A stretch of DNA of 64,000 nt, from assembly GCA_903864935.1 (NCBI GenBank), contig CAIPHT010000015.1:6618-70617 (forward strand), read 5' to 3'. This stretch comes from Candidatus Vogelbacteria bacterium (lineage in GTDB: Bacteria > Patescibacteriota > Minisyncoccia > Phycocordibacterales > XYD1-FULL-46-19). Position numbers and translations under genes: made by a program. Below are positions 5,568 to 64,000 of the stretch, in pieces (the first letter of the stretch is position 1; each line of letters opens with the position of its first letter). The notes under the pieces were generated by a model. It did not search any database and was not told the DNA's origin. It saw only the letters and a program-made list of their open reading frames with translations.

Positions 5568-5630
5568 CTCAATTGGTAGAGCAATGGTATCGTAAACCAT
5601 AGGTTGTCGGTTCAATTCCGACGGACGGCT
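5558..5630 (+). tRNA. tRNA-Thr (CGU)
   Basis: Acceptor gccgtcc/ggacggc, anticodon stem atggt/accat with loop ATCGTAA, T-loop TTCAATT. There is no long variable arm, so it is not Tyr. Confidence 0.8.
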
Positions 5631-25970: not shown

Positions 25971-25974
25971 AACA

Positions 25975-26496: not shown

Positions 26497-26505
26497 AAAA
26501 TAATC

Positions 26506-27375
26506 ATGCTAAAAATCATTGTGAAGAAGGATATCGAGAAAGACATTGCCCTAATAAAAAGAGAGCTTTTTGATGGGGGAGAGAATTACCGTCAGAGGAT
26601 TTTGAGTTATTATAAAACTTTGGCTGAAGAAATTAAGAACAAATCAAGAGAAGAAGCCGAGGAAATTGCCGATAATTTTTTCCGCAGGCAATACCATAAG
26701 ATGGCAGAAGATATTGACGAGATTGTTAAGGAGAGCCAAGAAATTTTAGAAGATAGATCAGAAGCTTGCCTCAATAAGCTTGTCGAACTAATGGACTATA
26801 AAATAAAAAGGGACGAAGAGTTTGTGGTTATTCCTACGTTGTTACCATATTCTCCTTTCCATCGGCCAACCGTTTATTTTTCTTTAATTACTCGACTGTA
26901 TTTGGGTAGAGGAAACATGATTTTGGATATCGCTATTCACGAGATATCCCACTTCTTATTTTTTGATATATTGAATGAGATTGGAGCGGATATCATAAAA
27001 ATTGAACCTAAAGAGTTTGGCTTCTGGTATCTCTTTAAAGAAGCTCTGACAGGGATGCTCTTGTCAGAAAAAGAGTTAGAAGATTTACTTGAAAGAAAAG
27101 GTTATAAGGGTAATCCTGAAGTTGAGAATCTCTCTGTCCAGAAAGAGGGCTCGGCTGATAAGATAACGCTAAGAGAATATTTAAGAGAAAGGCTCAACGA
27201 CCATAAGCAGAACGGCTCATGCTTTAATTCCTTTATTAAAGAGATTATTTCTGAACTCCGACCTCAAGTGGAAGCCTTTGAGGCAAAGAATAATTTTTGG
27301 GTTAAGAATGAGGAGGAAATAAAAAAATGGAATCAAGATTTAATTAGAGAGTACGAGGAGCCAATTTTAATTTAA
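26506..27375 (+). CDS. Hypothetical protein with an HExxH motif
   Basis: IAIHEISHFLF. Confidence 0.4.
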   Translation: MLKIIVKKDIEKDIALIKRELFDGGENYRQRILSYYKTLAEEIKNKSREEAEEIADNFFRRQYHKMAEDIDEIVKESQEILEDRSEACLNKLVELMDYKIKRDEEFVVIPTLLPYSPFHRPTVYFSLITRLYLGRGNMILDIAIHEISHFLFFDILNEIGADIIKIEPKEFGFWYLFKEALTGMLLSEKELEDLLERKGYKGNPEVENLSVQKEGSADKITLREYLRERLNDHKQNGSCFNSFIKEIISELRPQVEAFEAKNNFWVKNEEEIKKWNQDLIREYEEPILI

Positions 27376-27382
27376 TTACAAA

Positions 27383-27982
27383 ATGAAAAAGATTGGTGAA
27401 GGTTGGCAATATGGTGTCTATGATTTAGAGAACGGGCGGGTGTTGAAGAAATTTCACTCACCGCTAAAATCGTACTGGGTAATATTAAAAGATATTTTTC
27501 CTTTTAAACAGGATTCGATTTTTGAGATACCCGGTTTTTCGCGGGGGATGAAAGTTAAGGCCCTTGAGTCATTCGAAATTCTGAAAAAGAAAAATCTCCC
27601 GCCGGAATGGCTGGGGAATCCTAAATTTATAAATGATCTAGACTTCGAGCAAGATAAGGCCTTTCCTCTCCATGACATTTTTTCTCAATCCGAGGTTGAA
27701 GAAGCGAAGGGGATTATTGATAAATTTGTTGAGTTTAATAAAAAGTTATTAGAGAGAGGGGTGATAGATAAGAGCTTTAACATCACTAAGAATTATGGGC
27801 TAAATAGTGACGGAGAAATTGTCTTGATTGATATTGGAGAATTATTTGATAATCCGGAAAGAATAAAAGAACAATGCGCGGGTCGCGCTTGGGCCAAGGA
27901 TTATGTTGCTGGCCGTATTGCCAATGACGTGGCAAGAGAGTATTTTATTAAGGAGATGGATAAGAATTTTGAATCTAATTAA
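27383..27982 (+). CDS. Hypothetical protein, possibly an atypical kinase-like fold
   Basis: Gly-rich IGEGWQYGVY followed by VLKKF, and later LIDIGE. The call is weak. Confidence 0.3.
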   Translation: MKKIGEGWQYGVYDLENGRVLKKFHSPLKSYWVILKDIFPFKQDSIFEIPGFSRGMKVKALESFEILKKKNLPPEWLGNPKFINDLDFEQDKAFPLHDIFSQSEVEEAKGIIDKFVEFNKKLLERGVIDKSFNITKNYGLNSDGEIVLIDIGELFDNPERIKEQCAGRAWAKDYVAGRIANDVAREYFIKEMDKNFESN

Positions 27983-28501
27983 ATGAAAAAGAAAATCACC
28001 GTAAATGATTTAATGCAGAAGGGCTATATTTATTATCTCACGGAGTTAGAAGGGAAGAATTTTGCTAAAGACTTCAAACCGGATTTGTCGCCCAAACAAA
28101 TGCTTAAGTTGGGTGTCTTCGGTGGGCGCTATATGCGTGATTGCCAGAAAGAGTTTCCATCAGACTGGTTCAAGGGGGCCAAACTCTTGCCGATGGGAGT
28201 GAGGGGTCATGATCCTAAATTAAACCTCTTCGGGGTAGATGCTTCGCAGCCACTTGCGGTGTGGCGCAAGAAGGGCTGGATTAATGAAGAGCATGACCCG
28301 AGGGGTTGGTTCCAATGGTACTGTCGTTATTATCTGGGGCGTCGTTTGCCAGAGGAGGATGAGAAACAGATTAAGCGTTGGCGCGCCATTAATCGTCATT
28401 TGGCACAGTTAAGAAAAAACTGTAGGGTCGGGGATCTAAATTGCCGCCGTCGCCAACGTCAGGCTGTTCTCCACTGGGCCTATGATAGTCGCAAAATTTA
28501 G
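27983..28501 (+). CDS. Hypothetical protein
   Basis: ORF only. Confidence 0.4.
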   Translation: MKKKITVNDLMQKGYIYYLTELEGKNFAKDFKPDLSPKQMLKLGVFGGRYMRDCQKEFPSDWFKGAKLLPMGVRGHDPKLNLFGVDASQPLAVWRKKGWINEEHDPRGWFQWYCRYYLGRRLPEEDEKQIKRWRAINRHLAQLRKNCRVGDLNCRRRQRQAVLHWAYDSRKI

Positions 28502-47815: not shown

Positions 47816-50644
47816 ATGAAAAGGCCTTTTTCTCTTGCCTCCTCTTTTCTTCTTGGTCTAATGATTATTTTTAGTTTTCCGGCCTTAGCCAGCGCGGCGA
47901 CGTATTATGTTCGTGCGGATGGGACAGTGACTTGTGCAAATAAGGCGAATGCTACCAGCCCAGATTTAGCCAGCACTTCGTTAAGCGTTTTAAGCAGTGC
48001 AAATGGAGTTAATGGTTGTAATACTTTTTTACCTGGCGATACGATATATTTTTCTGCCAAAGGAGGCTCATACACGGCGGTAAATAGTGCCATTGATGCT
48101 ATCCCCACAGCAATTTATATACCCCAGGCTTCGGGAGTAGTTGGTAATCCTATAAATTATATTGGACTTTCTGACAATTCCTCTACTACAACTTTAGCTA
48201 ACGGAGCGACAAATAATTATCCCCTTGTTGATGTCAGTGCTGTTGCTGGAGGAAATGGTGTTACAGGGGGTTCTGCTGGGATAAGAGTTGCTCATGTCAA
48301 TTATGTAACAGTTCAAAATTTTAACATTAAAGGTAGCGGTGGCTCTGGCGCTGCTGTTTTTCAAATGGATAATTCTTCTGGGACAGCAGGAAACGGATAC
48401 ACTAACGTATTTACAAACATAAATGTGCTTCAAGGTTATGGTGCCTCAACTGGCAATGATGATTGCTTTGGGGGCGGATCCTCTGCCGGTGAGAATGCGC
48501 AGGGTGTCTTTAATAATATTTATGCTAGCGGTTGTCGGCCCAATCCTCAATCCTCTATGAGTGACCAATGCTTTACTCTCCACGAGAACGCCAAGGCTCA
48601 AATCAATGGTATGTATTGTACAGATTCTAATAATGGAATTACTGATACTTTGAATACCCAATTAACAGCGACAAACATTACAATTAATAATGCTTATATA
48701 AATGTTATCTCTGCAGGTGGAATGACAAGCTCTGGTTATGTAACAGTTACAAATTCAACCTTTAATGTTAATGGAACGGGTGATTTACTTAATATCCCCG
48801 CTGGCAATGGGGCGGTTGTCGTTACAATATCAAGCAGTACAATTAATGCTACTGCGGGTGGTACTGGTTTTGTTTTTGGGGGCATTGCTAATTTTATTAG
48901 CAATATTTGGTCCATTAATTCATCTGCTTTTCAAGAAAAGGCTGAAGCTGGTGGAACAATTAATATTATTGGGCAAAATATTTTTTCTTTAAGTACAACG
49001 CCTTCGTCCGCGATGTTTTATGCTGATTCTGGTTCACCGGTCTCAACTCTTAATATCTCAGGAGCTACTTTTAATGGTGGTACTGGCGGGGGCGATTTAA
49101 TTGCCAACACTGGAACGGGGACTGTTAATGCCCATAACAATATTTTTACTAATTTTGGTGGGCTAGAGGCTCCTGGTTGGGCTTTTAATGGATCAGGAGT
49201 TTCTAATTGGTTTAATAATACTTTTTATAATACAAGCAAAACAGGCTCTGCCTTTCGTAACCAGAGTCCTTTAGTTGCCACCATAAATAATAAAAATAAT
49301 ATCTTTTATAATGTCGCAAACCCGTGTTATGGAGGAGACTGTGGCGCTACGGGTTATACTTCGTCTTACAATGATTATTACAACTATACGGCGATAACTA
49401 ATCCTGGCGCGGGGAGTATTCTAACTGATCCAAAATTTATAACCCCCGGAACCGACTTCCGTCTTCAGCCAACGTCTCCCGCAATTAATATGGGAACAAA
49501 TGTTTCTTTGACCTCTGATTTCTTGGGCAATAGTGTTCCTCAAGGTTCGGCTCCAGATATCGGAGTTTATGAATTTGTCATTCCTTCTGCTCCATCATCT
49601 CTTGCTCAATACAAAGCCGATGGGACAACGAACATCGCTTCCGGCCGATGGACTAGTGACCCAACCGTCGTGCTGAAGTTTTTGATGTCTTCAGTTAATG
49701 GTTCTGATTCTTTAACTCCGCAAGTAGAAATTCAACCGATGGGAACGGCTTTTACTAATATTACAACTAATTCAGGCAATGCGGTTGCTTATTCTGGTTC
49801 CTCGGTAGTAGGAGTAGTTACAATTGCTGGCTTAAGTTCTGGTCGAACTTATCATTGGCAAGCGCGAGTTAGTAATTCTGTCGGGACAAGCTCTTGGTCG
49901 GCAATGGGTGGTAATCCTGACTTTGGGGTTGGCTCTTCTGACGCTTCGCTTAGTAATCTTACGCTTAGCTCTGGCACTTTAAGTCCGACTTTTGCTTCTA
50001 GCACGACCTCGTACACGGGTGAAGTCTCTAATAGTGTTAACAGTTTAACCGTTATCCCGACCGCTGGTCAGGCCAGTTCAACTATAACGGTTAACGGCAC
50101 AACTGTTACTTCTGGTTCGACTTCAATACCCGTAAATTTAAATGTTGGCAATAATATTATTAATATTGTCGTTGTTGCTCAGGACGGCTCAACCACTAAT
50201 ACCTATACGGTTAATGTGGCGAGGGCGAGCGGCTCTGTGGTCTCTGGTTCTTCATCTGGCAATTCAGTCGCGAATCAAATCGATAATCTCAATGCGATGG
50301 GGAATACCAAACTAGCGGGTGACTTGAGGCTCAAATACAATCTTGCGACTTCTACCCAATCCCGTAAAGTCGCTACGCTCCCACGGGACGCAGCCACCAT
50401 CACTCGCACTCTAAGTTACAAGATGACGAGCAAGGAGGTGAAACTCTTGCAACAATTCTTAAATACTCACGGCTTCGCAGTCGCCAAGAAGGGGACAGGC
50501 TCGCTCGGTCACGAGACCACCTACTTCGGTCTCTCCACTAAAGCGGCCGTCATTAAATTCCAAAAGGCCAACAAAATCAAACCAGCGAATGGCTTGGTGG
50601 GGCCACTGACCAGAAAAGCGATTCTCAAACTACTTTCTTCTTAG
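47816..50644 (+). CDS. Secreted parallel beta-helix (pectate-lyase-fold) repeat protein with a cadherin-like beta-sandwich domain and a C-terminal peptidoglycan-binding (PG_binding_1) domain
   Basis: Signal peptide, Asn/Gly/Thr-rich beta-helix repeats, LSNLTLSSGTLSPTFASSTTSYTGEV (cadherin-like), and a C-terminal LLQQFLNTHGF...YFGLSTKAAVIKFQKANKI. Confidence 0.55.
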   Translation: MKRPFSLASSFLLGLMIIFSFPALASAATYYVRADGTVTCANKANATSPDLASTSLSVLSSANGVNGCNTFLPGDTIYFSAKGGSYTAVNSAIDAIPTAIYIPQASGVVGNPINYIGLSDNSSTTTLANGATNNYPLVDVSAVAGGNGVTGGSAGIRVAHVNYVTVQNFNIKGSGGSGAAVFQMDNSSGTAGNGYTNVFTNINVLQGYGASTGNDDCFGGGSSAGENAQGVFNNIYASGCRPNPQSSMSDQCFTLHENAKAQINGMYCTDSNNGITDTLNTQLTATNITINNAYINVISAGGMTSSGYVTVTNSTFNVNGTGDLLNIPAGNGAVVVTISSSTINATAGGTGFVFGGIANFISNIWSINSSAFQEKAEAGGTINIIGQNIFSLSTTPSSAMFYADSGSPVSTLNISGATFNGGTGGGDLIANTGTGTVNAHNNIFTNFGGLEAPGWAFNGSGVSNWFNNTFYNTSKTGSAFRNQSPLVATINNKNNIFYNVANPCYGGDCGATGYTSSYNDYYNYTAITNPGAGSILTDPKFITPGTDFRLQPTSPAINMGTNVSLTSDFLGNSVPQGSAPDIGVYEFVIPSAPSSLAQYKADGTTNIASGRWTSDPTVVLKFLMSSVNGSDSLTPQVEIQPMGTAFTNITTNSGNAVAYSGSSVVGVVTIAGLSSGRTYHWQARVSNSVGTSSWSAMGGNPDFGVGSSDASLSNLTLSSGTLSPTFASSTTSYTGEVSNSVNSLTVIPTAGQASSTITVNGTTVTSGSTSIPVNLNVGNNIINIVVVAQDGSTTNTYTVNVARASGSVVSGSSSGNSVANQIDNLNAMGNTKLAGDLRLKYNLATSTQSRKVATLPRDAATITRTLSYKMTSKEVKLLQQFLNTHGFAVAKKGTGSLGHETTYFGLSTKAAVIKFQKANKIKPANGLVGPLTRKAILKLLSS

Positions 50645-50670
50645 TTTCGAATATGGTTTAATTTAGAAAT

Positions 50671-51312
50671 ATGGAATCTTTAGACAAAAATATTGAACAG
50701 CAATTGGCTGAGGCGCAAGAATTATTGCGCCAAAGTGAGGCACGGATTATTGAACTAGAAGGAGAAAACAAAAAATTAAGGGAAGATTTAATTCACGATG
50801 CTTTAACTGGTTTGAAGACACGCTCGTTTCTTGAAGCGCGAGCGCACGAGATTCTCTCGGAGATGTCTTCGTCTGAAGAACGCCGGCGGGGCCTTTATGA
50901 GAATGTCGGTTTTGTCTTTTGTGATATTGATGACTTCAAATTAATTAATGATACTTATGGTCATGATGTTGGAGACCTCGTTTTGAAGGCGGTAGCCGAA
51001 GTATTATCTAATGGGGTCCGCGAATCAGACGTTTTTTGTCGTTGGGGTGGGGAAGAGATGGTGGGGATAATGTTGGGGGCAGACTTGGCTAATTCTCACG
51101 AGAAAGCTGAGAAGTTAAGACAAGATGTTGAGGCTCTTAAATTTCCCGATTATCCTAACCTTAAAGTTACCGCCAGTTTTGGCGTTTCGTCTTTCTCGGC
51201 TGAGGGAGAGAAGTCGTCGGCGACTGAGCTCGTTAAGCAATTGATTGATCAGGCTGATGAGGCCTTATATTTGGCCAAGAAAAACGGGAAGAATCAGGTT
51301 AGGTATTTATAA
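50671..51312 (+). CDS. GGDEF-domain diguanylate cyclase with an N-terminal coiled coil
   Basis: RWGGEEMVG active-site variant with I-site-like context, and the preceding DFKLINDTYGHDVGD. Confidence 0.7.
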   Translation: MESLDKNIEQQLAEAQELLRQSEARIIELEGENKKLREDLIHDALTGLKTRSFLEARAHEILSEMSSSEERRRGLYENVGFVFCDIDDFKLINDTYGHDVGDLVLKAVAEVLSNGVRESDVFCRWGGEEMVGIMLGADLANSHEKAEKLRQDVEALKFPDYPNLKVTASFGVSSFSAEGEKSSATELVKQLIDQADEALYLAKKNGKNQVRYL

Positions 51313-51477: not shown

Positions 51478-51729
51478 ATGTACCACGTCTATATTTTGAA
51501 AAGTCTCAGAGACAACGGATATTATATAGGGTGCACTTCTGATTTAGATAAGAGAATCCGCGAACATAATTCTGGCAAAACGGTCTCTTTGCGAAATCGG
51601 CGACCACTGGAAATTATTTACTCTGAGAGGTATGATAACCAGGCAGAGGCTTATAGTAGAGAAAAACAAATAAAGTCATACAAAGGAGGTTCTGCCTTTA
51701 AAAAATTAATACACGGAGAGGTCGCATAG
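51478..51729 (+). CDS. GIY-YIG nuclease superfamily protein (second paralog), with a 3' end overlapping tRNA-Ser
   Basis: YHVYILKS...YYIGCTSDLDKRIREHN. Its last 15 nt overlap the 5' end of the tRNA. Confidence 0.7.
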   Translation: MYHVYILKSLRDNGYYIGCTSDLDKRIREHNSGKTVSLRNRRPLEIIYSERYDNQAEAYSREKQIKSYKGGSAFKKLIHGEVA

Positions 51730-51804
51730 TGGTCTAGTGCGCACGCTTGGAAAGCGTGTGAGGTGTCAAAGCCTCCGAGGGTTCGAATCCCTCTCTCTCC
51801 GCCA
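51715..51804 (+). tRNA. tRNA-Ser (GGA), long variable arm, CCA encoded
   Basis: Acceptor ggagagg/tctctcc, anticodon loop TTGGAAA, variable arm tgaggtgtcaaagcctc, T-loop TTCGAAT. Confidence 0.75.
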
Positions 51805-52766: not shown

Positions 52767-55700
52767 ATGCTTAAGTCAAAGACCAACAGACTGGTCAAAT
52801 TTTTGGCGCTATTTTGCGGTAGCGGGATTTTGCTATTAACCCTTCTTCCTCTTACTACTACAGCCGCTTTTACTAAGCAGATTAACTATCAAGGCAAATT
52901 ATCTGACGGCACGGGAGCCTCCGTGGTTGATGGGACTTATTCAATTACCTTCAAACTCTATGATGCCCCAACTGGCGGTTCAGCTCTCTGGACCGAAACC
53001 CAGTCCGTGGTTGTTGCTTCAGGTCTCTTCTCCACCATGCTTGGCTCGGTTTCTTCGCTTGATAATATTAATTTTAATCAGGCTCTTTACCTTACTTTGA
53101 ATGTTAATGGCGACGGCGAGATGAGTCCGCGCAAGGTAATTGGGGCTGTCCCGGCCGCCTTCCAAACCTCGCGTTTAGACGGGAGCGCTTCAACTACGGT
53201 GGTTGATGTTAGTGATTATCTTTCGGTTAGTGGTCTAACGAACTTAGCGACCACGAGTCTTAGTGGCGACATTTTCATTAATAGCCTAACGAATTTGAGC
53301 GGTACTGATTATCAGAATTTTGTTCAAACTGGTTATGTCTATACTGACGACTGGGCGGGAGATACTGTTGCTTCTCTCTATAGCCAGTCAGACAGTGGCG
53401 TTGGCTTAACTGGCCAAGGGAATTATGGCGTTATAGGTCGTGGCAGTATTGGTATTATCGGTGAAGGTTTGGATATTGGCGTTGCTGGTATAACTAAGAA
53501 TGATTCTAGTATTGCTGGGGAGTTTTATACCGATGGTAATTATTCCACTGGCCTTAAGGTTGAGACCGGTGGCCTTGGAGGATTAGGAGTTGATATATAT
53601 ACCGGCAACGCTGAAAAGGCTTTAAATGTCTACAATAGTAGCTCCACCGCTTACTCTATCTATTCGGCAGGGGGGTTAAATCAATTTGAAGGTAGCACTG
53701 TTTTTGGTTCCAGTCCTAATACCTTGAGTATCTCTCAAGTTGATTTTGTTCCAGGGCTTCTCTCTGGGATGGAGCTAAGCGGTATAACGAATCTTGGCTT
53801 ACCTTTCTTTAGTATTAAGAATGGTCTTTTCTTGCGCGGGGCCGATGTTTATCCTGGAATAACTTTTGGTGATAGTACTTTTACGTACCAGTCGAGCATT
53901 GCTTATTCTACTACGACGCGAGCAATGAATTTCAATAACGCGAGTGTCTATAATTTTGATCAGGATCTCTCAGTTAGCGGTACAGTTAAAGCCACCTGTT
54001 TCTCTAATGACGGAGGTCTTACCTGCATCACGGGTGGCGCCGGTGTCAGTGGCGGGGGAGATTCTTTGTGGGCCACAACGTCTTTGTCTGGGAGAGTTAT
54101 TCATCCAAGCGTCTCTAATGTTTATCCGGTGGTTATTGGTGACAACGCGACGACTTCTGATTCGATCTTCGAGGTCAATGGTGATACTAAATTAAGGAAT
54201 AATTTAACTGTTGGGGGTCTTTCCTTCTTATCTGGGGTTACGGTTTCTAGCTTGAGTATCGGATCTCTCTCGGGCCTACTTTTCGGTGTTGGTGGAGCTG
54301 TTGGCTCTTTAGCGACTTCTTCACTGGGTTTGATCACTACCAATGTCGCGGAGGGTTCTAATTTATATTGGACAAATAACCGTTTTGATTCTCGCTTAAT
54401 GGCAACAACTTCGTTGCCTAACCTTGCGACTCTCTCCGGCCTCTCAAGTCTCGGTTCTTCTACCGGACAGACAACGATCTTGGGCAAAACAATTTTAACC
54501 AACGCTTCGACCACGGCTCTCTCTGTCTCTGGCCAGACTTATCTTACTGGCCTGCTAACGGGGGTTAATGCTAACTTTACGGGGACCCTTGGGGTAACTG
54601 GCAAGACAACTCTGGCCAACGCTTCGACCACGGCTCTCTCTGTCTCTGGCCAGACTTATCTTACGGGTAATCTTGGTATCGGTTTGACGAACCCTTCGAC
54701 AGCTCTGTCTGTTCTCGGTGTTGCTTCTTCAACTGGTCTCCAAGTTAACGGAAATGGATTTTTGACTGGGGCTCTCTCGGTCGGGACGAGTTCGGTCGCT
54801 TCTAAATTTAATTTGCAAGGATCGCCAGGTCTCTCTGTTCTCAATATTTCTTCGTCAACGGGAGCGTCTATTTTTACCATTGCGGGTAATGGGAGTATTG
54901 GTATAGGGACTTCAACCCCAAGCTCTAGTCTGTCAATTGCGACAAAGAATGCTGGTGATGGATTGAATATCGATGGGACTTCGAGTTTCTCTCCTTTTGT
55001 TACCTTTAGTTATAATTCTACTCAAGCTGGAGGGCTTGGTCTGGCTTTGGTGGGGAACCATGGAGTCACAGGAGCCAATCCTTTTGATATGGTTCTCTTG
55101 GCCAAGAGTGCGGGGAGTAATTTGTTGTTTGGGGCTAGCAATACCGAATATATGATGATTTCTGGCAACGGTAATATTGGTATGGGAACCAATACTCCGG
55201 TGGCGGCGCTTGATATTTATAATTCACGCAATCTCACTGACTTTACTTCGGTGATTGATTCAACGACGGTCTCGGTGCCCTCAAGTCCTCTGCTTAGCGC
55301 TGGTTATAAAATAAATAGCACCGGCCTTAATTCGGTTATGTTGGGAGCCTACTCAACGAGCTCTATGGCTTACACTTTTTCTTATGGTCAAAATAATCTC
55401 TTCACTAGACTTGGCATTGTGGGGGAATACGACACCGTTTTTGGATCTAACAATCGATTCAATGCAAGTATGGGTAGCTTAACCGTTGGTAACAATAATA
55501 ATTCGCACCTTCTTGGTAGTTCTTATCTTTTTGGTAACAATAACGACGTCTCTGGTATTGGAACAAAACAATTTGTTTTGGGTAACGGCAACCTTATCTC
55601 ATCCCTTTTTGGAGATAATTATGTCTTCGGTTCTGACAACAACATGCATTCGGCCGAGAACTTTGTCGTTGGGAACAATAACAATCTTTCTCAGGAGGGA

Positions 55701-56879
55701 TCATATGTTTTTGGTAGCAATAATTATAATGATGATGGTAACACCAGCGCCCCTTCATATATCCTTGGTTCTAATTCCACGACAACAACGGGTTATGCTT
55801 TTGTCTTTGGTAATAATCTGTCTGTAACAGCGACGAGCTCTTTCCTCTTTGGGGTTGATAATGGAACCTATGCGGTAAATAAAAATTATATTTTATCGGT
55901 GATGGGAGCAAGAAACGGTATTGGCTTTGGGACAACGACACCAGCTTATGCTTTCGTCGTCGGTAGCGGAGCCAAGGCGGCCACCTCATCTATCCAGGTT
56001 CCGCGGGGTGGCATTTGTGTTGATGACGATGGTTGGTGTACTCCTACTGATGGCAAGGTCTCAGCTGTCAATTATACGACTGGTCACTCGGACTTAGCGG
56101 AGAATTATCCAGCTTTTGAAAGAGACCTTGGTGCTGGTGATATTGTCTCTATCTCTTCTCTTAATAATTCGGGTCTTGCTTTCAAGGCTGATTTTGGGGT
56201 TAAGAAGGCGGTGTCGGGAGAAACGTCCTTGGGAGTTATCTCCACGAACCCAGGCATTACTCTTGGTCTTGATAATGAGATTAATAATATTGGCCAAGTC
56301 CCAGTAGCTCTGTCCGGCCGAGTTCCTGTTAAGGTTAATCTTGAGGGGGGGGTCATCAATGTGGGTGACCGCATAACCCTCTCGTCTTTTGCCGGAGTTG
56401 GCACCAAGGCAACCTCTTCAGCTGAGACTATTGGTATCGCGTTAGGAGCCTTCAATGCCCTCTCTCCTCAGACAAATGGTATTGGACAAGTCCTTGTCTT
56501 TGTTAATCTTGGCTATGCTCATCTTGATACTTCATCTGTCAACCGACCGCTTGGCACCTTCTCTGATTTCTCGGGTCAGACCCTGGCTAATGTCCAAGCC
56601 ATCATTTCCTCGAGTGGTAATTGGAGTATTGATAGCTCTGGCAATCTCACGGCGAAAACGCTTACCGCAGACAAACTTTGTCTCGGGTTGACCTGTGTGA
56701 CAGAGGGGGAGTTGAGGACAATCCTTGAAAAAGCCGGCCTCCTCTCTTCACCGGTTGTAACTCCGTCCCCTGATCCGACAAGCTCAGACCCTGTTATCGA
56801 GACCAAAGACACAGCCCCTGAGGCCACAAGCTCTGAGTCGATAAGTGTTGACCCAATTATTACCCCTGAATCTCAATAG
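52767..56879 (+). CDS. Giant secreted cell-surface protein (1370 aa) made of Gly/Ser/Thr-rich beta repeats with a tail-fibre-like C-terminal region
   Basis: Signal peptide, long low-complexity beta repeats (LSVSGQTYLTG motifs), a C-terminal YTTGHSDLAENYP segment, and a proline-rich C-terminus. Confidence 0.55.
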   Translation: MLKSKTNRLVKFLALFCGSGILLLTLLPLTTTAAFTKQINYQGKLSDGTGASVVDGTYSITFKLYDAPTGGSALWTETQSVVVASGLFSTMLGSVSSLDNINFNQALYLTLNVNGDGEMSPRKVIGAVPAAFQTSRLDGSASTTVVDVSDYLSVSGLTNLATTSLSGDIFINSLTNLSGTDYQNFVQTGYVYTDDWAGDTVASLYSQSDSGVGLTGQGNYGVIGRGSIGIIGEGLDIGVAGITKNDSSIAGEFYTDGNYSTGLKVETGGLGGLGVDIYTGNAEKALNVYNSSSTAYSIYSAGGLNQFEGSTVFGSSPNTLSISQVDFVPGLLSGMELSGITNLGLPFFSIKNGLFLRGADVYPGITFGDSTFTYQSSIAYSTTTRAMNFNNASVYNFDQDLSVSGTVKATCFSNDGGLTCITGGAGVSGGGDSLWATTSLSGRVIHPSVSNVYPVVIGDNATTSDSIFEVNGDTKLRNNLTVGGLSFLSGVTVSSLSIGSLSGLLFGVGGAVGSLATSSLGLITTNVAEGSNLYWTNNRFDSRLMATTSLPNLATLSGLSSLGSSTGQTTILGKTILTNASTTALSVSGQTYLTGLLTGVNANFTGTLGVTGKTTLANASTTALSVSGQTYLTGNLGIGLTNPSTALSVLGVASSTGLQVNGNGFLTGALSVGTSSVASKFNLQGSPGLSVLNISSSTGASIFTIAGNGSIGIGTSTPSSSLSIATKNAGDGLNIDGTSSFSPFVTFSYNSTQAGGLGLALVGNHGVTGANPFDMVLLAKSAGSNLLFGASNTEYMMISGNGNIGMGTNTPVAALDIYNSRNLTDFTSVIDSTTVSVPSSPLLSAGYKINSTGLNSVMLGAYSTSSMAYTFSYGQNNLFTRLGIVGEYDTVFGSNNRFNASMGSLTVGNNNNSHLLGSSYLFGNNNDVSGIGTKQFVLGNGNLISSLFGDNYVFGSDNNMHSAENFVVGNNNNLSQEGSYVFGSNNYNDDGNTSAPSYILGSNSTTTTGYAFVFGNNLSVTATSSFLFGVDNGTYAVNKNYILSVMGARNGIGFGTTTPAYAFVVGSGAKAATSSIQVPRGGICVDDDGWCTPTDGKVSAVNYTTGHSDLAENYPAFERDLGAGDIVSISSLNNSGLAFKADFGVKKAVSGETSLGVISTNPGITLGLDNEINNIGQVPVALSGRVPVKVNLEGGVINVGDRITLSSFAGVGTKATSSAETIGIALGAFNALSPQTNGIGQVLVFVNLGYAHLDTSSVNRPLGTFSDFSGQTLANVQAIISSSGNWSIDSSGNLTAKTLTADKLCLGLTCVTEGELRTILEKAGLLSSPVVTPSPDPTSSDPVIETKDTAPEATSSESISVDPIITPESQ
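54501..54664 (+). repeat. In-frame tandem duplication inside the giant gene: an exact 47-nt repeat (aacgcttcgaccacggctctctctgtctctggccagacttatcttac) at 54501-54547 and 54618-54664
   Basis: Exact identity with a 117-nt period. It encodes NASTTALSVSGQTYLTG twice. Confidence 0.8.
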
Positions 56880-56886
56880 ATACGAC

Positions 56887-57936
56887 ATGAACAAAAAAAT
56901 TTTTCTAGCCCCGTTATTTTTATTTCCAGTCATTTCTTTTGGAGCTAATTTTACCGATGTGCGAATTAATGAATTTTTGCCTCAACCGACGAGCGGTTCG
57001 GGTTGGGTTGAACTTATCAATTCCTCCTCTTCGGATATAAATTTAGCCGGCTGGACGATTGGCCATCTTAACTTTACAGAAGAATCTGGGACAACAACAT
57101 CACGTGAGGCCCTTGGTGGCCTAATTCCTCGAGGGGGTCTCGTTTCTTTTGATATTGATCTTCGGCCGGAAGGGGATCAATTAATTCTAAGTGATGAAGA
57201 TGGGGCACTTATCCACGGGGTCAGTTATGGTGATGCAGTTATCTCAACGACAGACTCTTTTGACATTCCCCCGAGCTTGGGTCAATCGGCGATAACGGCC
57301 AGTAATGATGGTGGCTTTTGGACCACAACCGACATGCCTAGTCATAATTGGTTTAATCAGTCTCCGACGAAGACGGATATTTTGGATACTTTGCCTGCTG
57401 GCGTCTCTAGTAATTTAGATGTTTCTTCTGATTGGACAATTTTGGGAGATATTATTTTCTCTCGTGAGGGCTTTGAGCCTGTTATTTGGACTGGCCCACA
57501 CAATCTGACTGGGGCCGTCGAGAGGGCTGAGTTTGCTCGTCTTGGTACGGAGTTAGTTAATCGTGTGGTTCTTCCTGTTTTGCCATCAAGCGGCGGAGGT
57601 GGAGGAGGCGGCGGGAGCCCTACTGCTTCAGGAGGGGTGGTCGCTACCCCAGTAGACCCTTTAATTGGTCTTGTTTTAGGGACCTCAACTTCTCGTCGCC
57701 CCTTTACCTTTAGCCGTATTTTGCGGCCTGGGATGCGTGGGCCAGATGTCCAAGAATTGCAGAAAATTTTGCAAAGGGACGGCTTTTTTAAAGCTCAAAT
57801 TACCACTTATTTTGGCCCCCTAACTTCTCGAGCCCTAAGTCTCTGGCAAAAAAAGAATAATATTCGACCGGCGACCGGGGTGGCAGGGAAGCCGACTCTG
57901 AGATATCTCAACCTTCTTGGGAGCTTGGACGGATGA
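56887..57936 (+). CDS. Secreted lamin-tail-domain (LTD) protein with a C-terminal peptidoglycan-binding domain
   Basis: RINEFLPQPTSGSGWVELINSSSSDINLAGWTI (LTD), a Gly-rich linker, and C-terminal MRGPDVQELQKILQ...YFGPLTSRALSLWQKKNNI (PG_binding_1). Confidence 0.6.
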   Translation: MNKKIFLAPLFLFPVISFGANFTDVRINEFLPQPTSGSGWVELINSSSSDINLAGWTIGHLNFTEESGTTTSREALGGLIPRGGLVSFDIDLRPEGDQLILSDEDGALIHGVSYGDAVISTTDSFDIPPSLGQSAITASNDGGFWTTTDMPSHNWFNQSPTKTDILDTLPAGVSSNLDVSSDWTILGDIIFSREGFEPVIWTGPHNLTGAVERAEFARLGTELVNRVVLPVLPSSGGGGGGGGSPTASGGVVATPVDPLIGLVLGTSTSRRPFTFSRILRPGMRGPDVQELQKILQRDGFFKAQITTYFGPLTSRALSLWQKKNNIRPATGVAGKPTLRYLNLLGSLDG

Positions 57937-58032: not shown

Positions 58033-58698
58033 ATGAACAAATCTATCCTTGCTTTTACCACTGTCTCCTTTGTTCTTTTTTTGATGATCTACCCTGCGCT
58101 TGAGGCTGGTTTGGCAACAGCGGCTTCTACGGCGACAGTAGTGGCTAAGCAACAGGTAACCTCAGAGATTTCATTAACGGTGGCGAGTTCAACTATGGCG
58201 CTTCTCCCGGCTATCCCCGGTCTTACTGGTGGTACGGGTAATGCCTCAACTTCGGTCAACGTTATTACCAACAATAAAGCGGGCTACACGGTGACCGTCC
58301 AAGGCGCGGCAACGGCGGGGAAGACCGCGGCAATGGTTGGAGATACGACGGCAGGTGTTATTGCTGATTATGCTACGACCACCGGCCCTATCACTGATGC
58401 TACTTGGGCTGATACAAGTACTAACGGTGTTTCGCAATTTGGTTTTGGTATTACTAACACCTCATTGTCTTCAGCTAATGGTGCTCCTGGCTATGGCACT
58501 TGCACTCTTGTGGATTCTTGTTGGATGAAGTTAGGTACTACTACGACTCGGACAGTTGTGAATGTCTCTACTTATACATCCAACCTGGGGGACACTTTTC
58601 ATCTTAAGTTCCGCGTTCACTTACCAGCCAACTCCAACCCTTTAGTGCCCCAAGATTGGTATACAGCCACTACCACAGTAACCGCTATTGTCACTTAG
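58033..58698 (+). CDS. Secreted beta-rich protein, paralog A of a three-member family (conserved C-terminal Y-x-ATTT-x-TA strand, two conserved Cys)
   Basis: About 60% identical to 59778..60452. Signal peptide. Shared blocks SEISLTV.SSTM.LLP, GFGITNTSLSSANGA.GYGTC and LVPQDWYTATTT. Confidence 0.55.
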   Translation: MNKSILAFTTVSFVLFLMIYPALEAGLATAASTATVVAKQQVTSEISLTVASSTMALLPAIPGLTGGTGNASTSVNVITNNKAGYTVTVQGAATAGKTAAMVGDTTAGVIADYATTTGPITDATWADTSTNGVSQFGFGITNTSLSSANGAPGYGTCTLVDSCWMKLGTTTTRTVVNVSTYTSNLGDTFHLKFRVHLPANSNPLVPQDWYTATTTVTAIVT

Positions 58699-58734
58699 TT
58701 TAATTGTTCTTAATTATTATTATTTATAAAAAAT

Positions 58735-59778
58735 ATGCTTAAATACTCTCGTTCTTTGATTTTTATGGCTTTGCTTCTGGCCAATGTGGCCATGGCTTCG
58801 CTTGCCTTTGCTTACGCCACAGAGCCCGTGCAGATTGATCCTAGTCGACAAGATTTCGTCGTTGGTCCGGGTAAGACCGACCTCACTCTTACCCCTGGAG
58901 AATCAACCGTTGTTGAGTTGATGGTCTCTAACCGTACAGGGGTTGATCGTAATTTTGAAATTAAATTTGAAGACTTTGTGGGAAGTCAAGACTTGAGTTC
59001 CCCTGTCGTTTTTACTAATGAGAAGGGGGCGACAACGATGGCCGATTATCTTTCTGTCCCAGAGAAGACATTTTTCTTAAAGAATGGTGAGAGAGCGCGT
59101 ATCCCTGTCACTATCACTGTCCCAGCTGGCGCTGAGGCTGGAGGCCGCTACGCGAGTGTCCTCATCTCAACCTTGGTCCCCGTTGAGAAGACGGCGATAA
59201 ATGGTGATGAGAGAAAGGGTGGCGTGCCACTTATTACTCAGACCGGAACTTTAGTCTTCGTGACAATCCCTGGTAATGTTAAGAAGGAAGGCGCTTTAAC
59301 AGAATTTTTCACTCAAAACAAGAAATCATTTTTCTCTGTCCCCAAGGATGTCGTCTTTAGTTTAATTTTTAGCAATACCGGCAAGATCCACCTTAAGCCA
59401 TCTGGGACGATCTCGGTCAAGAACATTTTTGGTCAAGAAATTAAGAACATTGAGGTCACGCCTTGGTTTGCCATGCCCAATTCACTTCGCCTTCGTGAGG
59501 TCAATTTGATTGCCGACCCAGTTAAAGAAAAGCCGTTCATGCTCGGGCGTTATGTGGCTGAGGCCAAGATCTTCCGCGATTACGATAATCTTACTGATAC
59601 CAAGTCCTTTGCTTTCTGGATCATCCCTTGGAAGTTGCTTCTCGTAATCTTCTTAATCCTTCTTGTCATTGTCTTCTTAATCAGCTTGGGTGTTAAGTAT
59701 GTCTCTTCTCATTTTGAATTTAAGGCCAAACCGACAGAAGTGAAGCCAACAGAAGTAGTTCCTCCTCAAACATCATAA
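58735..59778 (+). CDS. Cell-surface protein with two beta-sandwich domains and a C-terminal TM anchor (DUF916/DUF3324-like, CscA-like architecture)
   Basis: Signal peptide, FVVGPGKTDLTLTPGESTVVELMVSNRTGVDRNFEIKFEDF, and a C-terminal hydrophobic anchor FAFWIIPWKLLLVIFLILLVIVFLI. Confidence 0.45.
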   Translation: MLKYSRSLIFMALLLANVAMASLAFAYATEPVQIDPSRQDFVVGPGKTDLTLTPGESTVVELMVSNRTGVDRNFEIKFEDFVGSQDLSSPVVFTNEKGATTMADYLSVPEKTFFLKNGERARIPVTITVPAGAEAGGRYASVLISTLVPVEKTAINGDERKGGVPLITQTGTLVFVTIPGNVKKEGALTEFFTQNKKSFFSVPKDVVFSLIFSNTGKIHLKPSGTISVKNIFGQEIKNIEVTPWFAMPNSLRLREVNLIADPVKEKPFMLGRYVAEAKIFRDYDNLTDTKSFAFWIIPWKLLLVIFLILLVIVFLISLGVKYVSSHFEFKAKPTEVKPTEVVPPQTS

Positions 59779-60452
59779 TGAAGTTAACATTTCTAAATCA
59801 TTATCATTCCCCTTTGGCATTGACCTTGGTCATCTTCTTTCTCCTGCTCGCTGTTTACCCAATGGTTGAAGCCGGTTTTGTCACGGCGGCCTCTAGTGCG
59901 ACTGTCGTCTCTAAACAACAAATTACCTCAGAGATATCCCTGACGGTGTCTAGCTCGACAATGGTCCTCTTGCCATCTATCGCTGGTCTTACTGGTGGCG
60001 CGGGATATGCTTCAACAACGGTTAATATTGTCACTAACAACAAGAATGGGTATACGGTGAATATTCAAGGGACGACAACTCCTGGTGAGTTGGGGGAGAT
60101 GAGTGGGGATACCACCGCTGGTTATTTTGGTGATTATCCGGCCACGGTGCCCGAGACTTGGGCGAGTTCTTCGGCCAACGGTGTGTCTCGTTTTGGCTTC
60201 GGCATTACCAATACTTCACTGTCTTCGGCTAATGGCGCATCTGGTTATGGGACTTGCGCTGGCTTCGAGTCTTGCTGGTCTAAGTTGGCGACCACAACAG
60301 CTAAGGCTGTGGTGACAACCAGCACCTTCACTCCTTATTCTGGCGACAACTTCCAGCTTAAATTCCACGCTCAGGTCCCGGCCAACTCTAATCCGCTTGT
60401 CCCCCAAGACTGGTATACGGCGACGACCACTTTGACAGCGGTTGTGATTTAG
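59778..60452 (+). CDS. Secreted beta-rich protein, paralog B
   Basis: Paralog of 58033..58698. Confidence 0.55.
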   Translation: MKLTFLNHYHSPLALTLVIFFLLLAVYPMVEAGFVTAASSATVVSKQQITSEISLTVSSSTMVLLPSIAGLTGGAGYASTTVNIVTNNKNGYTVNIQGTTTPGELGEMSGDTTAGYFGDYPATVPETWASSSANGVSRFGFGITNTSLSSANGASGYGTCAGFESCWSKLATTTAKAVVTTSTFTPYSGDNFQLKFHAQVPANSNPLVPQDWYTATTTLTAVVI

Positions 60453-60458
60453 TTTTCT

Positions 60459-61934
60459 ATGAAAATCTTTAGAGTGTGGCTGATTTTACTTTTTTTCGCT
60501 TTTGGTCTGTTTAACGGCCAGCCGGTTTTGGCTTCTACTGCGGCGGATGTCACTGCCAAAGTTTTTGTCTCTTCAGAGGCCACGACTTTGTCGGCCCCAA
60601 TTAATCTCTTAGCCGTAGTGGTATCTAGCACCCAGATAGATTTATCTTGGTCGCCACCTGAAGATATGACTGGGGTAGCGGGTTATTATATTTATCGCGA
60701 TGGTGTTCGTTTGGTTAGCACCAATAATTTAGCTTATTCTGACCAGAATCTATTACCTTCAACGACATACCAATATTACTTAACCTCGTTTGATAATATT
60801 GGTCGAGAGTCTTTGCCTACCCCAACGGTCACCGTTACGACAAATGATTTTGTCACTCCAGCCCCCGTCCCTGTTGTTGAGACGGGGAGCCACCTCTCAA
60901 GCAGCCTCTTTCGTCTGACTAATTTCAAAATTGTACCAGTTAAGAATAATGGTCGGCGTTCTTTAGTTGTCTCCTTCGATACTAATTGGCCGACGCTGGC
61001 GACACTTCGTTATGGTCTAAAGGAGGACACGTCACTAGCGATAATTAATGGGACGGGCTATGTTCAGCATCACAGCTACTCGCTAGATTCTCTCCCTAAG
61101 AGTTTGCAGTATTATATTAATATTAAACTCATTGCTTCGAACGGGTATTCGCCCACTTTGAGTTTAGTTTATGTCGACGGGAGAATCTTTGGCGATATTT
61201 TTAGACCCGGAGATGTCAGCGATCTTGACCTAAGGGCTCAAGGGAACTCAATTATTTTGTCTTGGCAGAATCCTGAGGCCACAACTTTTGAAAATATTTA
61301 TGTTGTTCGTTCGGATAAATTTTATCCGGTAACACGATTTTTTGGTTTGCCTCTCTGGCAGGGTCAGATGACAAGTTATGTTGATAAGGGCTTAGAATTT
61401 AATAAGAATTATTATTATGGAATTTTTGTTTGTGATAAGGATAAGATCTGTTCCCTCGGTTCATATGCAGTCGCTTACTTAGAGTCGGGCAACGGATTAA
61501 ATTTGATTACGGCAACAAGCTCTGCCCAAATTGTCGGGCGTTATTGTGAGCAAAAAAAAGTTTTTAGTGGTGACAAATTTTCTCTTTCTGTCTTGGCTGA
61601 TAAGAGGGAGGATAATCCAAGGCTTTGTCTTGTCCGTCTGACTAGGGGAGGGAAGATTATTGGGCTGCATCAATTGCTTGAGACCGAAGATGGACTTTTT
61701 GAATCCTCAGCTTTTTCTATTACGGAGGCGGGGATTTATCGTTATAATGTTGAATGTTATGATGCCTTTGGGTCCAATTTGAATAAAGTTGCTTGTGGAG
61801 AAATTACTGTGGCTGGGGCCAAACCACTTACCGGGGGAGCTCTCCGGTGTTGGATTAGTTGGTTTATAATTTTGGTTATCCTTATTTTGATTTGGTATTT
61901 TTTATTAAAATCAAAAAAACAAAATAAAAAATGA
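60459..61934 (+). CDS. Surface protein with a fibronectin type III domain and a C-terminal TM anchor
   Basis: LAVVVSSTQIDLSWSPPEDMTGVAGYYIYRDGVRL (FN3), and a C-terminal WISWFIILVILILIWYFLLKSKKQNKK. Confidence 0.55.
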   Translation: MKIFRVWLILLFFAFGLFNGQPVLASTAADVTAKVFVSSEATTLSAPINLLAVVVSSTQIDLSWSPPEDMTGVAGYYIYRDGVRLVSTNNLAYSDQNLLPSTTYQYYLTSFDNIGRESLPTPTVTVTTNDFVTPAPVPVVETGSHLSSSLFRLTNFKIVPVKNNGRRSLVVSFDTNWPTLATLRYGLKEDTSLAIINGTGYVQHHSYSLDSLPKSLQYYINIKLIASNGYSPTLSLVYVDGRIFGDIFRPGDVSDLDLRAQGNSIILSWQNPEATTFENIYVVRSDKFYPVTRFFGLPLWQGQMTSYVDKGLEFNKNYYYGIFVCDKDKICSLGSYAVAYLESGNGLNLITATSSAQIVGRYCEQKKVFSGDKFSLSVLADKREDNPRLCLVRLTRGGKIIGLHQLLETEDGLFESSAFSITEAGIYRYNVECYDAFGSNLNKVACGEITVAGAKPLTGGALRCWISWFIILVILILIWYFLLKSKKQNKK

Positions 61935-62692
61935 CTCTTAAAAAAATAATTTTCTCTACCTCCCTTATAATTGTTGTCTGGGCGACCCACGGTGTTTGGG
62001 GTGCGATGACGGGCGGAACATACAAAATTGACAGTGATAGCATTAATTCTGGTGGGATTGAGGACTCATCTTTTGGGAATTATAATCTCAATGATACGGT
62101 AGGTGAAATCTCCATTGGTAATTCTACCAGTTCTAATTATCAAATGATGGCGGGCTATCGACAGATGGAGGACGCGAGTCTGGCGATTGGTGTCTCTTTG
62201 CAGAATATCAATCTTGTGCCGGACCTTGGCGGTATCTCGGGTGGGACCTCAACCGGAGCGACCGAGGTTATTGTTACTACCGATGATCCGGCCGGTTATT
62301 CTCTCACGATCCAATCCGGTAATACTCCCGCTCTAACCTCTGATAGTGATACGATTGCTGATTATTCGCCGGCCGGAGCTATTCCCGATTACGGCTTTGT
62401 GGTCTCGGTGGGGCAATCTGTCTTCGGCTTTACCCCAGAGGGACCAGATATCGTTGATCGTTATCGCGACGATGGCAGTGGCACCTGTGGCATTGTGAAT
62501 GGCGGTGACACGACCAATAAATGTTGGGATGGTTTGGCCACAATCGCCAAGCCCATTGCTTACCGTGGCTTCGAGACGCCAAATAATGGAGCCACCACCA
62601 CCCTACGCTTCTCGGCGGGGATTGGTGCCAATCGTCTCCAACGCAACGGCTCTTATTACGCGACAACCACAATTACCGCTCTAGCGCTTTAA
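61931..62692 (+). CDS. Secreted beta-rich protein, divergent paralog C (C-terminal YYATTTITALAL)
   Basis: Shares the two-Cys core and C-terminal strand motif with A and B. Confidence 0.45.
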   Translation: MTLKKIIFSTSLIIVVWATHGVWGAMTGGTYKIDSDSINSGGIEDSSFGNYNLNDTVGEISIGNSTSSNYQMMAGYRQMEDASLAIGVSLQNINLVPDLGGISGGTSTGATEVIVTTDDPAGYSLTIQSGNTPALTSDSDTIADYSPAGAIPDYGFVVSVGQSVFGFTPEGPDIVDRYRDDGSGTCGIVNGGDTTNKCWDGLATIAKPIAYRGFETPNNGATTTLRFSAGIGANRLQRNGSYYATTTITALAL

Positions 62693-62752: not shown

Positions 62753-64000
62753 GTGATTAAGTTTAAATTTTTTCTTGCTGTTAGTTTTTTGATCGGAGCG
62801 TTTCTCGGGGTTTTGTCGGTGTCGGCCGCGACGGTTGGTTCAGCGAATAATCTTGGCTTGGTCGGTTATTGGCCTTTGGATGAAGGCCGCGGCACTTCTG
62901 TTGGGGACATGAGCGGTAAAGGTAATAACGGTTCAATAATTGGTAGCCCTGTCTGGTCTCTGGGTAATCGTTCGAGAGCCTTAAGATTTGACGGAGTAGA
63001 CGATAATATCCAAGTTCCTTCTTCAAGTAGCTTAAATCCGGGGCCAGATATGACCATGGCCGCTTGGGTTTATTGGGCTGGAGGGACTGGAGACAAAAAT
63101 ATCATAACCAAAGAGAGTTCTTATGAAATGAGAGTTAATGGCGGTTATGTTAATTATGCCACTACCCCTTGGGATTGGCGGGGAGGAACAAGTTCTCCGG
63201 TAAGTCAAAATCAATGGGCTTTTGTTGCCGTCACAAATGATGCTGACGGGCTACAAAAAATCTATATCAATGGGGTAGAAAAGTTCAGCTATTCTTCTGG
63301 TGGAGCGATTGTCTCTAATACTAATCCTTTAGAGATTGCTTCTCGTTATACAGGAACAATAAACTTTTTTAATGGCCTTATTGATGAACCAAGAGTTTAT
63401 AACCGGGTTTTATCAGCGGATGAAATTTTGAAGTTATATCAAACGGGGGCGGTTAATTATAACGTTTCGCGAACAAATAATCCGCTTACTTCTAGCTTGG
63501 TCGGTCACTGGACCTTCGATGGGAAAAGTCTGACAAACACTACCGCACTGGATCTTTCGGTGTCTGGGAATAACGGATCCTTGGTTGATGGAGCTGTACC
63601 TGGAATTGGTAGGATAGGTCAGTCTATTAAATTGAATGGGCTCAATAGCCGAGTTCATATTTCTGATGTGGCTAGTCTTAAATATGTCGGAGGAGATATG
63701 ACAATTTCTCTTTGGACCTTTATTAATCCCAGCGAGACAGGAGGAGCGACTATCGTGAGTAAACCATGGAATGGGTCTGGCCAGTATAATTATCGAATAA
63801 CTTTGACAGCTGCTAGGAGAATACAAATTAACTTGTATGCCGACGCTGGTTTCACTTCTGCTCTTAGCACTAATGCCCTGACTGTCGGGGAGTGGCATAA
63901 TATTATATTGAAGCTGACAACTGATAAAAAAGTTCAAGTATTTATTGACGGTAATCTTGAGATTAATGACTCGCACGGATTCACTAATTGGGTCCCTGGT
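62753..64000 (+). CDS. Secreted protein with tandem LamG/concanavalin-A-like lectin domains (GTG start; the 3' end lies beyond the window)
   Basis: Signal peptide VIKFKFFLAVSFLIGAFLGVLSVSAA. LVGYWPLDEG...GNNGSIIGSPVWSLGNRSRALRFDGVDDNIQV...MTMAAWVY fits the LamG_3 pattern twice. The frame stays open to nt 64000. Confidence 0.55.
   Translation, partial: MIKFKFFLAVSFLIGAFLGVLSVSAATVGSANNLGLVGYWPLDEGRGTSVGDMSGKGNNGSIIGSPVWSLGNRSRALRFDGVDDNIQVPSSSSLNPGPDMTMAAWVYWAGGTGDKNIITKESSYEMRVNGGYVNYATTPWDWRGGTSSPVSQNQWAFVAVTNDADGLQKIYINGVEKFSYSSGGAIVSNTNPLEIASRYTGTINFFNGLIDEPRVYNRVLSADEILKLYQTGAVNYNVSRTNNPLTSSLVGHWTFDGKSLTNTTALDLSVSGNNGSLVDGAVPGIGRIGQSIKLNGLNSRVHISDVASLKYVGGDMTISLWTFINPSETGGATIVSKPWNGSGQYNYRITLTAARRIQINLYADAGFTSALSTNALTVGEWHNIILKLTTDKKVQVFIDGNLEINDSHGFTNWVPG

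Follow-up and report, generated by a model that had tools for sequence, protein, structure and literature searches.

The closest described counterpart of the locus reported here is the Pam pilus, known from cryo-electron microscopy filament structures of the Candidate Phyla Radiation (CPR) parasite Candidatus Mycosynbacter amalyticus (Troman et al., bioRxiv 10.64898/2026.03.03.709456). In that system PamA, PamB and PamE are built of a nine-strand N-terminal sandwich, a linker donor strand and a truncated immunoglobulin (Ig)-like C-terminal domain, PamT is a single-domain tip pilin, and PamC and PamD are PapD/FimC-like chaperones with a C-terminal transmembrane (TM) helix. PamR, an RbmA-like fibronectin type III (FnIII, also FN3) protein that has an additional strand at its N-terminus and a TM helix at its C-terminus, was proposed to plug the last pilin and to anchor the fibre (bioRxiv 10.64898/2026.03.03.709456). 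We analyzed a stretch of 64,000 nucleotides (nt) from a Candidatus Vogelbacteria assembly (GCA_903864935.1, contig CAIPHT010000015.1, positions 6,618 to 70,617; hereafter the window), which at 58033-62692 contains five genes designated A to E. We propose, with a probability of roughly 0.77, that they form a compact Pam-type donor-strand pilus operon, reduced to single-domain pilins. The Pam-type pilus itself was already described in 2026; the reduced one-domain form and the gene order in the window are the new part.

The five open reading frames (ORFs), all on the + strand, were found at the coordinates claimed in an earlier note made from the sequence of this DNA:

58033..58698, + strand: gene A, candidate single-domain major pilin (221 amino acids (aa); signal peptide, N-terminal donor strand, incomplete Ig-like domain)
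58735..59778, + strand: gene D, PapD/WxLIP-like membrane-anchored candidate assembly chaperone (347 aa; AlphaFold2, Foldseek, PF06030)
59778..60452, + strand: gene B, second candidate single-domain pilin (224 aa; 66% identical to A)
60459..61934, + strand: gene E, PamR-like candidate anchor/terminator (491 aa; Pfam fn3, C-terminal TM helix)
61931..62692, + strand: gene C, PamT-like candidate tip pilin (253 aa; NCBIfam NF058579)

The order is thus pilin, chaperone, pilin, anchor, PamT-like protein. The spacing is operon-like: the stop codon of D overlaps the start of B, E and C share 4 nt, and the remaining gaps are 36 nt (A-D) and 6 nt (B-E). Scans for promoters and terminators gave nothing exceeding the shuffled expectation.

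The likeness to Pam extends over the whole gene set. Both systems are restricted to the CPR (Patescibacteria) and organized as conserved operons, both combine Sec-exported pilins, which have an Ig-like acceptor domain, a donor strand and paired cysteines, with a TM-anchored PapD-like chaperone and an FnIII protein bearing an N-terminal strand and a TM anchor, and neither has an usher. A PamT-like tip protein, identified by a direct hidden Markov model (HMM) match, and a large tail-fibre-like protein that is often adjacent are likewise common to both. In contrast to Pam, the donor strand lies at the N-terminus of the pilin and does not link it to a preceding nine-strand domain, a single chaperone takes the place of two, and the core comprises four genes, with a duplicated pilin in the window. 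The lineages differ as well, the locus being Paceibacteria-like while the Pam preprint emphasises Saccharimonadia and Microgenomatia.

A, B and C had been read in the earlier note as three secreted beta-rich paralogues with a two-Cys core and a conserved C-terminal strand, and each of these observations was borne out. A is 66% identical to B and 32% identical to C, cross-type BLASTP matches to relatives (E 9e-16 to 4e-9) independently supported the paralogy, and all three proteins carry both the GYGTC...C-W cysteine pair and the C-terminal Y-x-A-T-T-T-x-T-A motif. Among 33 family sequences conservation peaks in the N-terminal and the C-terminal strands, Y210, A212, T213 and T215 of the latter being invariant. 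PamA and PamB show likewise conserved N-terminal and C-terminal strands (bioRxiv 10.64898/2026.03.03.709456). The signal peptide of A is predicted to be cleaved after A30, and the segment that follows, with Q40 and E45 almost invariant, is the putative donor strand. The strands in question are:

58129..58167, + strand: putative donor strand of A, TATVVAKQQVTSE, residues 33-45, at the mature N-terminus
58657..58695, + strand: C-terminal strand of A, WYTATTTVTAIVT, final beta strand of the model (214-220)
59895-59933, + strand: donor-strand motif of B, SATVVSKQQITSE

The pilin signal peptides also share an invariant Glu at position -7 and an invariant Gly at position -5 of the predicted A-x-A site (E24 and G26 in A; 58033-58125). 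This pattern is unusual for Sec signals and might mark a special processing or recognition step.

The AlphaFold2 (AF2) monomer model of A, based on the 33-sequence alignment, reached a predicted local distance difference test (pLDDT) value of 84.7. After the signal helix, residues 28-45 form a segment of low confidence that is not docked; the beta domain that follows ends in the C-terminal strand. As modelled, this is a truncated Ig-like domain, a putative acceptor resembling those of chaperone-usher pilins, and nearly all of the top 50 Foldseek matches in the PDB were donor-strand pilins (TasA fibre, CS20, CfaB, FimA, PapE, FimG), with the TasA fibre 8aur at the top (E 1.9e-3). Solved structures were also searched by sequence, with proteins A and C as well as profiles A2 and A4, and nothing useful was returned. 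Relatives of 412-1566 aa end with the pilin domain, and in the two-domain relative P0357 the P-type strand motif is located between the domains, so that the N-terminal strand of A and B corresponds to the linker of Pam.

The donor is likely to be the N-terminal strand of the pilins, which the FN3 anchor protein mimics (see below). The C-terminal strand of A would line the groove as an acceptor, judging by chaperone-usher pilins and by the conservation figure of the Pam preprint. The earlier note had taken the conserved C-terminal strand as a possible sign of donor-strand polymerisation into a fibre; such a fibre is indeed the best supported reading, but the C-terminal strand is more likely its acceptor element.

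The AF2 monomer model of D, computed from 84 sequences, was of higher confidence (pLDDT 92.9) and showed a signal helix, two beta-sandwiches (residues 28-148 and 166-296) and a TM helix (299-326), after which a cytoplasmic FEFK(A/R)K tail follows. The best Foldseek matches were the Enterococcus faecium WxLIP structures 9i1y and 9i25 (E 2e-13); the next ones were CfaA, CsuC, YadV, CupB2, DraB, Caf1M, FimC and SafB (E 1e-9 to 1e-6), and also RbmA. As predicted, D has the fold of a PapD/FimC-like chaperone to which a TM helix is added at the C-terminus. Neither PapD nor usher families of Pfam were matched by the window proteins or the 84 D homologues. A single relative, P0412 (521 aa), has a chaperone and a PamT-like pilin in one ORF, probably through a missed stop or a gene-calling artefact.

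The earlier note had called D DUF916/DUF3324-like, and only the first half of this assignment was confirmed by sequence. D alone matched PF06030 (WxLIP_PGBD/DUF916) with an E value of 0.003 and 18.1 bits, under the gathering score of 27.3, but the relation holds at the family level, since 78 of 84 close D homologues matched PF06030 and the D-family profile detected the solved EfmWxLIP1 (E 1.2e-9). No Pfam match to DUF3324 was found among the 84 homologues. Alignment of the D family by hhalign against a plasmid-borne E. faecium DUF916+DUF3324 protein gave a probability of 95.9% for the first domain only; the Foldseek alignments between D and WxLIP span about 280 columns, i.e., both domains. Relationship of the D family to the DUF916 part of WxLIP, meaning homology of the chaperone half, is well supported. 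AlphaFold places a strand of DUF916 into its WxL partner (PMC10599100), which is in effect strand complementation. The Pam preprint mentions neither WxL nor DUF916 (bioRxiv 10.64898/2026.03.03.709456), and our literature search found no paper joining DUF916 with CPR terms.

This relationship raised the question of whether the locus might be a non-polymerising complex of the WxL/Csc type, in which D would hold A, B and C, as divergent WxL-like proteins, by strand insertion, the latter acting as adhesins or substrate binders. The WxL/Csc clusters and the locus do share a DUF916 homologue with two Ig-like domains and a C-terminal TM helix, as well as small and large subunits with the shared domain at the C-terminus, and the order small subunit, DUF916 protein, further subunit resembles that of plasmid-borne WxL clusters. 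The parallel with these clusters drawn in the earlier note was not upheld for the subunits. No WxL domain (PF13731) was detected in the 33 members of the A/B/C family at E<=1, no W-x-L tripeptide is present in A, B or C (the note itself had remarked that canonical WxL motifs were not evident), the five proteins have no LPXTG-like motif of the CscD kind, DUF3324 has no sequence match, and the host phylum is Patescibacteria, not Firmicutes.

More sensitive comparisons of the subunits were of little help to this alternative. In hhalign the pilins reached a probability of 0.4% against one WxL protein, and the 142-sequence pilin core reached 1.9% (P 0.026, not significant) against 11 WxL domains from plasmids of Enterococcus, Lactococcus, Listeria, Lactiplantibacillus, Levilactobacillus and Vagococcus. 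The relaxed alignment was nevertheless co-linear, pairing GY-x-VT with the first W-x-L motif (GW-x-L) and Y-x-ATTT-x-TA with the second one (Y..TLTWTL); as a non-significant alignment it may serve as a lead to a relationship between the pilin and WxL subunits. Moreover, WxL proteins are regarded as peptidoglycan-bound surface proteins and not as fibres, the subunit fold matches polymerising pilins, and the strand mimicry of the FN3 anchor described below is hard to explain without serial strand exchange. We therefore consider a WxL/Csc-type complex improbable.

In the earlier note E was described as an FN3 protein anchored in the manner of D. Indeed, Pfam recognized an fn3 domain at residues 45-122 of E (E 3.8e-9); another FN3-like stretch is present as well, and a hydrophobic C-terminal TM helix at residues 465-483 (nt 61851-61907) is followed by KSKKQNKK. 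One more element, mimicking the pilin donor strand, stands directly after the signal peptide:

60540..60578, + strand: N-terminal strand of E, AADVTAKVFVSSE

E thus shares with PamR the FnIII character, the additional strand at the N-terminus and the TM helix at the C-terminus, and in the relatives its homologues (26-29% identity) stand at the corresponding place of the cassette. The strand of the pilin and that of the anchor read TATVVAKQQVTSE and AADVTAKVFVSSE in the window, EDQFTVKQTITAE and EDQFTVKQLIGVD in locus L008, and YDQFTISQTVTAE and YDSFTVSQTVTGV in locus L010. Over 38 loci, the mean BLOSUM62 score of the anchor N-terminus against its cognate pilin strand was 22.2, in comparison with 17.4 +/- 0.8 for permuted pairings (0 of 20,000 reached 22.2) and 10.7 +/- 4.7 for shuffled queries. 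Since cognate pairs scored above permuted ones and these above shuffled ones, the strand is generic to the system and also co-varies within genomes. Such co-variation is what a terminator plugging the last pilin groove would need, and the mimicry supports, at the level of sequence, the way in which the fibre is proposed to be terminated and anchored.

C begins with a signal peptide and an extra N-terminal module of about 45 aa (YKIDSDSINSGG...), followed by a pilin domain as in A and B; C186 and C198 are invariant in the C-type family. It matched NF058579 CPR_pilus_PamT of NCBIfam (E 1e-12, 48 bits), and so did all 52 of the 52 C relatives (best E 1.5e-14), with scores far under the equivalog cut-off that indicate membership in the superfamily and not orthology. 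Through C (32% identity, cross-type BLASTP) A and B are tied to the PamT model, too. The C-type module is often preceded in relatives by LamG or other domains. In L084:2551-4080(-) and P0368 LamG domains 35% identical to the LamG protein of the window are fused before a PamT-like pilin, a FimH/PapG-like lectin-plus-pilin architecture that supports the tip role of C.

Conservation of the gene set was examined in relatives. A word-index search returned 35 homologues of the A type, 344 of the C type and 480 of the D type, whereas the exhaustive search with profile A2 yielded 781 clusters at 50% identity. Scanning of GTDB species-representative genomes with the D family gave 233 relatives, and 80 loci were taken for the survey. 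They came from Vogel-, Kaiser-, Taylor-, Zambryskii-, Nomura- and Buchananbacteria and Paceibacterota, with many labelled as uncultured Saccharibacteria. According to the HMM survey, 51 of the about 80 loci, which represent distinct Patescibacteria species, have the genes on one strand in the order pilin, chaperone, PamT-like protein, FN3 anchor, and most of the remaining loci, many of them truncated by contig ends, had sub-sets of the same four-gene order. No further conserved gene was found in the cassette beyond the four core families. The order in the window is itself unusual, as a second pilin gene between the chaperone and anchor genes was seen only here and in near-identical contigs.

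Two loci carried labels other than Patescibacteria, L039 (Nanoarchaeia archaeon, with the full four genes) and L069 (Balneolia bacterium, with a truncated pilin-chaperone pair); both are most likely mis-binned Patescibacteria contigs.

The notion of a dedicated surface-assembly module put forward in the earlier note hence holds, the gene set being kept in relatives. Of the profile searches it had proposed, the one for DUF916 revealed a family relation and those for WxL and DUF3324 found no sequence match; the gene order proved to be a conserved four-gene cassette. A profile relation to Csc/WxL components and a conserved order, whose absence the note had named as speaking against its proposal, are therefore both present.

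The fixed cassette also bears on a chaperone-free alternative, namely a self-assembling matrix fibre akin to TasA, archaeal bundling pili or haloarchaeal Tat-fimbriae, with D and E as unrelated surface proteins. Like the proposed filament, these fibres consist of beta-rich subunits polymerising by strand donation, and a TasA fibre is the best single Foldseek match of A. Additionally, the regions N-terminal to the pilin domain in some large relatives (P0355, P0363, P0368) match NCBIfam TafC, a subunit of haloarchaeal Tat-dependent fimbriae. However, such fibres need no chaperone, TasA uses a dedicated signal peptidase, and there is no family-level sequence match: Peptidase_M73/TasA of Pfam was matched by neither the window proteins nor the 33 family members, and the cassette encodes no SipW-like peptidase. 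As D and E are co-conserved with the pilins in fixed order in the 51 loci and E carries the pilin strand, we regard this alternative as very unlikely. The TafC matches hint that the strand-donation fibres of CPR and archaea share modules.

Several observations weigh against the interpretation of the locus as a Pam-type pilus. The PamT match of C covers the N-terminal half of the model only and is far under the 240-bit equivalog cut-off, and within C a sequence (YQMMAGYRQMEDA) still aligns with the donor strand of the pilins, which fits poorly with a tip pilin said to lack one. No Pam model of NCBIfam was matched by the A/B family or by D and E; apart from C, the proteins were likened to those of M. 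amalyticus by the descriptions given in the preprint. A and B are single-domain proteins of about 190 aa in the mature form, unlike the two-domain PamA, PamB and PamE. The Foldseek matches of pilin A are weak (E 2e-3 to 0.2; template modelling scores 0.3-0.56), though the list is consistent. The ATP synthase neighbourhood described for the pam operons was not seen among the sampled window genes. Finally, the pilus reading is founded on genes and monomer models, from which the groove and the filament are deduced.

Chaperone-usher pili, too, are among the systems closest to the locus. Both they and the locus show a pilin fold with an N-terminal extension and a two-domain chaperone fold (Foldseek), for both donor-strand complementation and exchange would apply, and a lectin-pilin tip fusion occurs among the relatives of the locus. 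The differences are that the locus has no usher and its hosts no outer membrane, that the chaperone is membrane-anchored and not soluble, that PapD/fimbrial Pfam families are not matched by sequence, and that an FN3 membrane protein would terminate and anchor the fibre. Because there is no outer membrane, an usher would be dispensable.

On the basis of the observed gene set, predicted folds, family relationships, conserved cassette and strand mimicry, we infer chaperone action, polarity, assembly order and filament formation as follows. All five products would be exported via Sec, as their signal peptides suggest. A and B would be the shaft pilins, each with one incomplete Ig-like domain after a free N-terminal strand. 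D, held in the membrane by its C-terminal helix, would insert a strand into the open groove of newly exported pilins, in the manner of PapD/FimC and WxLIP. In head-to-tail donor-strand exchange the N-terminal strand of the incoming pilin would then displace the chaperone strand in the previous pilin and pair with the invariant C-terminal strand Y-x-ATTT-x-TA of the latter. C would start the fibre at the distal tip, where it may carry or recruit adhesive modules. E would end the fibre, its N-terminal strand plugging the last groove and its C-terminal helix tying the filament to the cell membrane.

The genes adjoining the cassette in the window encode further surface proteins. Downstream, as the earlier note had reported, a LamG protein follows:

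62753..64000, + strand: LamG-repeat secreted protein, GTG start, extending past the window end

On a near-identical contig (L001:6460-8586) the protein is of full length, 708 aa, with a signal peptide and three LamG repeats (Laminin_G_3). It was considered as a carrier of a pilin domain and rejected, as no such domain was found. Having no anchor and not being a conserved neighbour of the cassette, it is possibly an accessory adhesin outside the conserved core, and the LamG/PamT-like fusions found elsewhere hint that it works with the tip protein.

Upstream, a 1370-aa secreted protein (52767-56879, + strand) gave no Pfam or PHROG match. Its N-terminal motif, AAFTKQINYQGKL...LWTE, shows 45-49% identity to proteins of >1300 aa that adjoin the cassette in five loci (L008, L012, L013, L005 and L006), and a large fibre-like neighbour of this type was present in 12-23 of about 80 loci. 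A 'tail fibre-like protein' was also reported in pam neighbourhoods (bioRxiv 10.64898/2026.03.03.709456). The idea that the 1370-aa protein bears a locus-specific pilin-like strand was rejected, the N-terminal motif being identical across loci. The end of its gene is overlapped by the start of the next one (56845-57936, + strand), coding for a 363-aa protein with a lamin-tail domain (LTD) and a PG_binding_1 part, the latter with endolysin-like PHROG matches. Further upstream, at 47816-51312 (+ strand), lie a gene for a 942-aa surface protein with Cadherin-like and PG_binding_1 domains and then one for a stand-alone GGDEF diguanylate cyclase. Neither the LTD protein nor the Cadherin-like and GGDEF proteins are conserved beside the cassette in relatives.

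A region so rich in large surface proteins (the 1370-aa fibre-like, LTD+PG_binding, Cadherin-like+PG_binding and LamG proteins) could suggest a mere cluster of unrelated secreted beta-rich adhesins or S-layer-like proteins without ordered assembly. Conservation is confined to the four core families and does not extend to such neighbours beside the cassette, and the fold and family evidence for pilins and a chaperone speaks otherwise; this explanation appears hardly credible to us.

Elsewhere in the window, a cluster at 4578-5630 comprises five tRNA genes; another one (51715-51801) precedes the surface-protein region by about 1 kb. At 25470-28501 (+ strand) there is a row of five small ORFs of 166-289 aa. 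Among the sampled ORFs, those at 25470-25970 and 26506-27375 and the 421-aa ORF at 13965-15230 (- strand) had no Pfam match at E<=1e-5.

Beyond the CPR, the DUF916 link points to a concrete mechanism, open to testing, by which the WxL clusters of enterococci, listeriae and lactobacilli might work; their function has been unclear since 2006. It is conceivable, if somewhat doubtful, that Pam pili and the Firmicutes WxL/Csc clusters are two branches of an ancient monoderm 'anchored-chaperone' system. If so, WxLIP (DUF916) would act as a donor-strand chaperone tethered to the membrane, and the WxL domain would be a pilin-type acceptor domain that has diverged, with its two W-x-L motifs corresponding to the GY-x-VT and Y-x-ATTT-x-TA strands. 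On this view the WxL proteins would not just be bound to peptidoglycan; strand complementation would hold and perhaps chain them.

For the CPR, the locus as a Pam-type operon would represent a simpler form of the system, in which pilins of a single domain are combined with one chaperone, a tip protein and a membrane anchor, and would provide a small protein set tractable for reconstitution. To date, Pam pili are the sole structurally defined CPR-specific host-contact filaments and are known from one cultured species of Saccharimonadia. The presence of the four-gene cassette in a large share of Paceibacteria-like genomes extends the likely range of this system.

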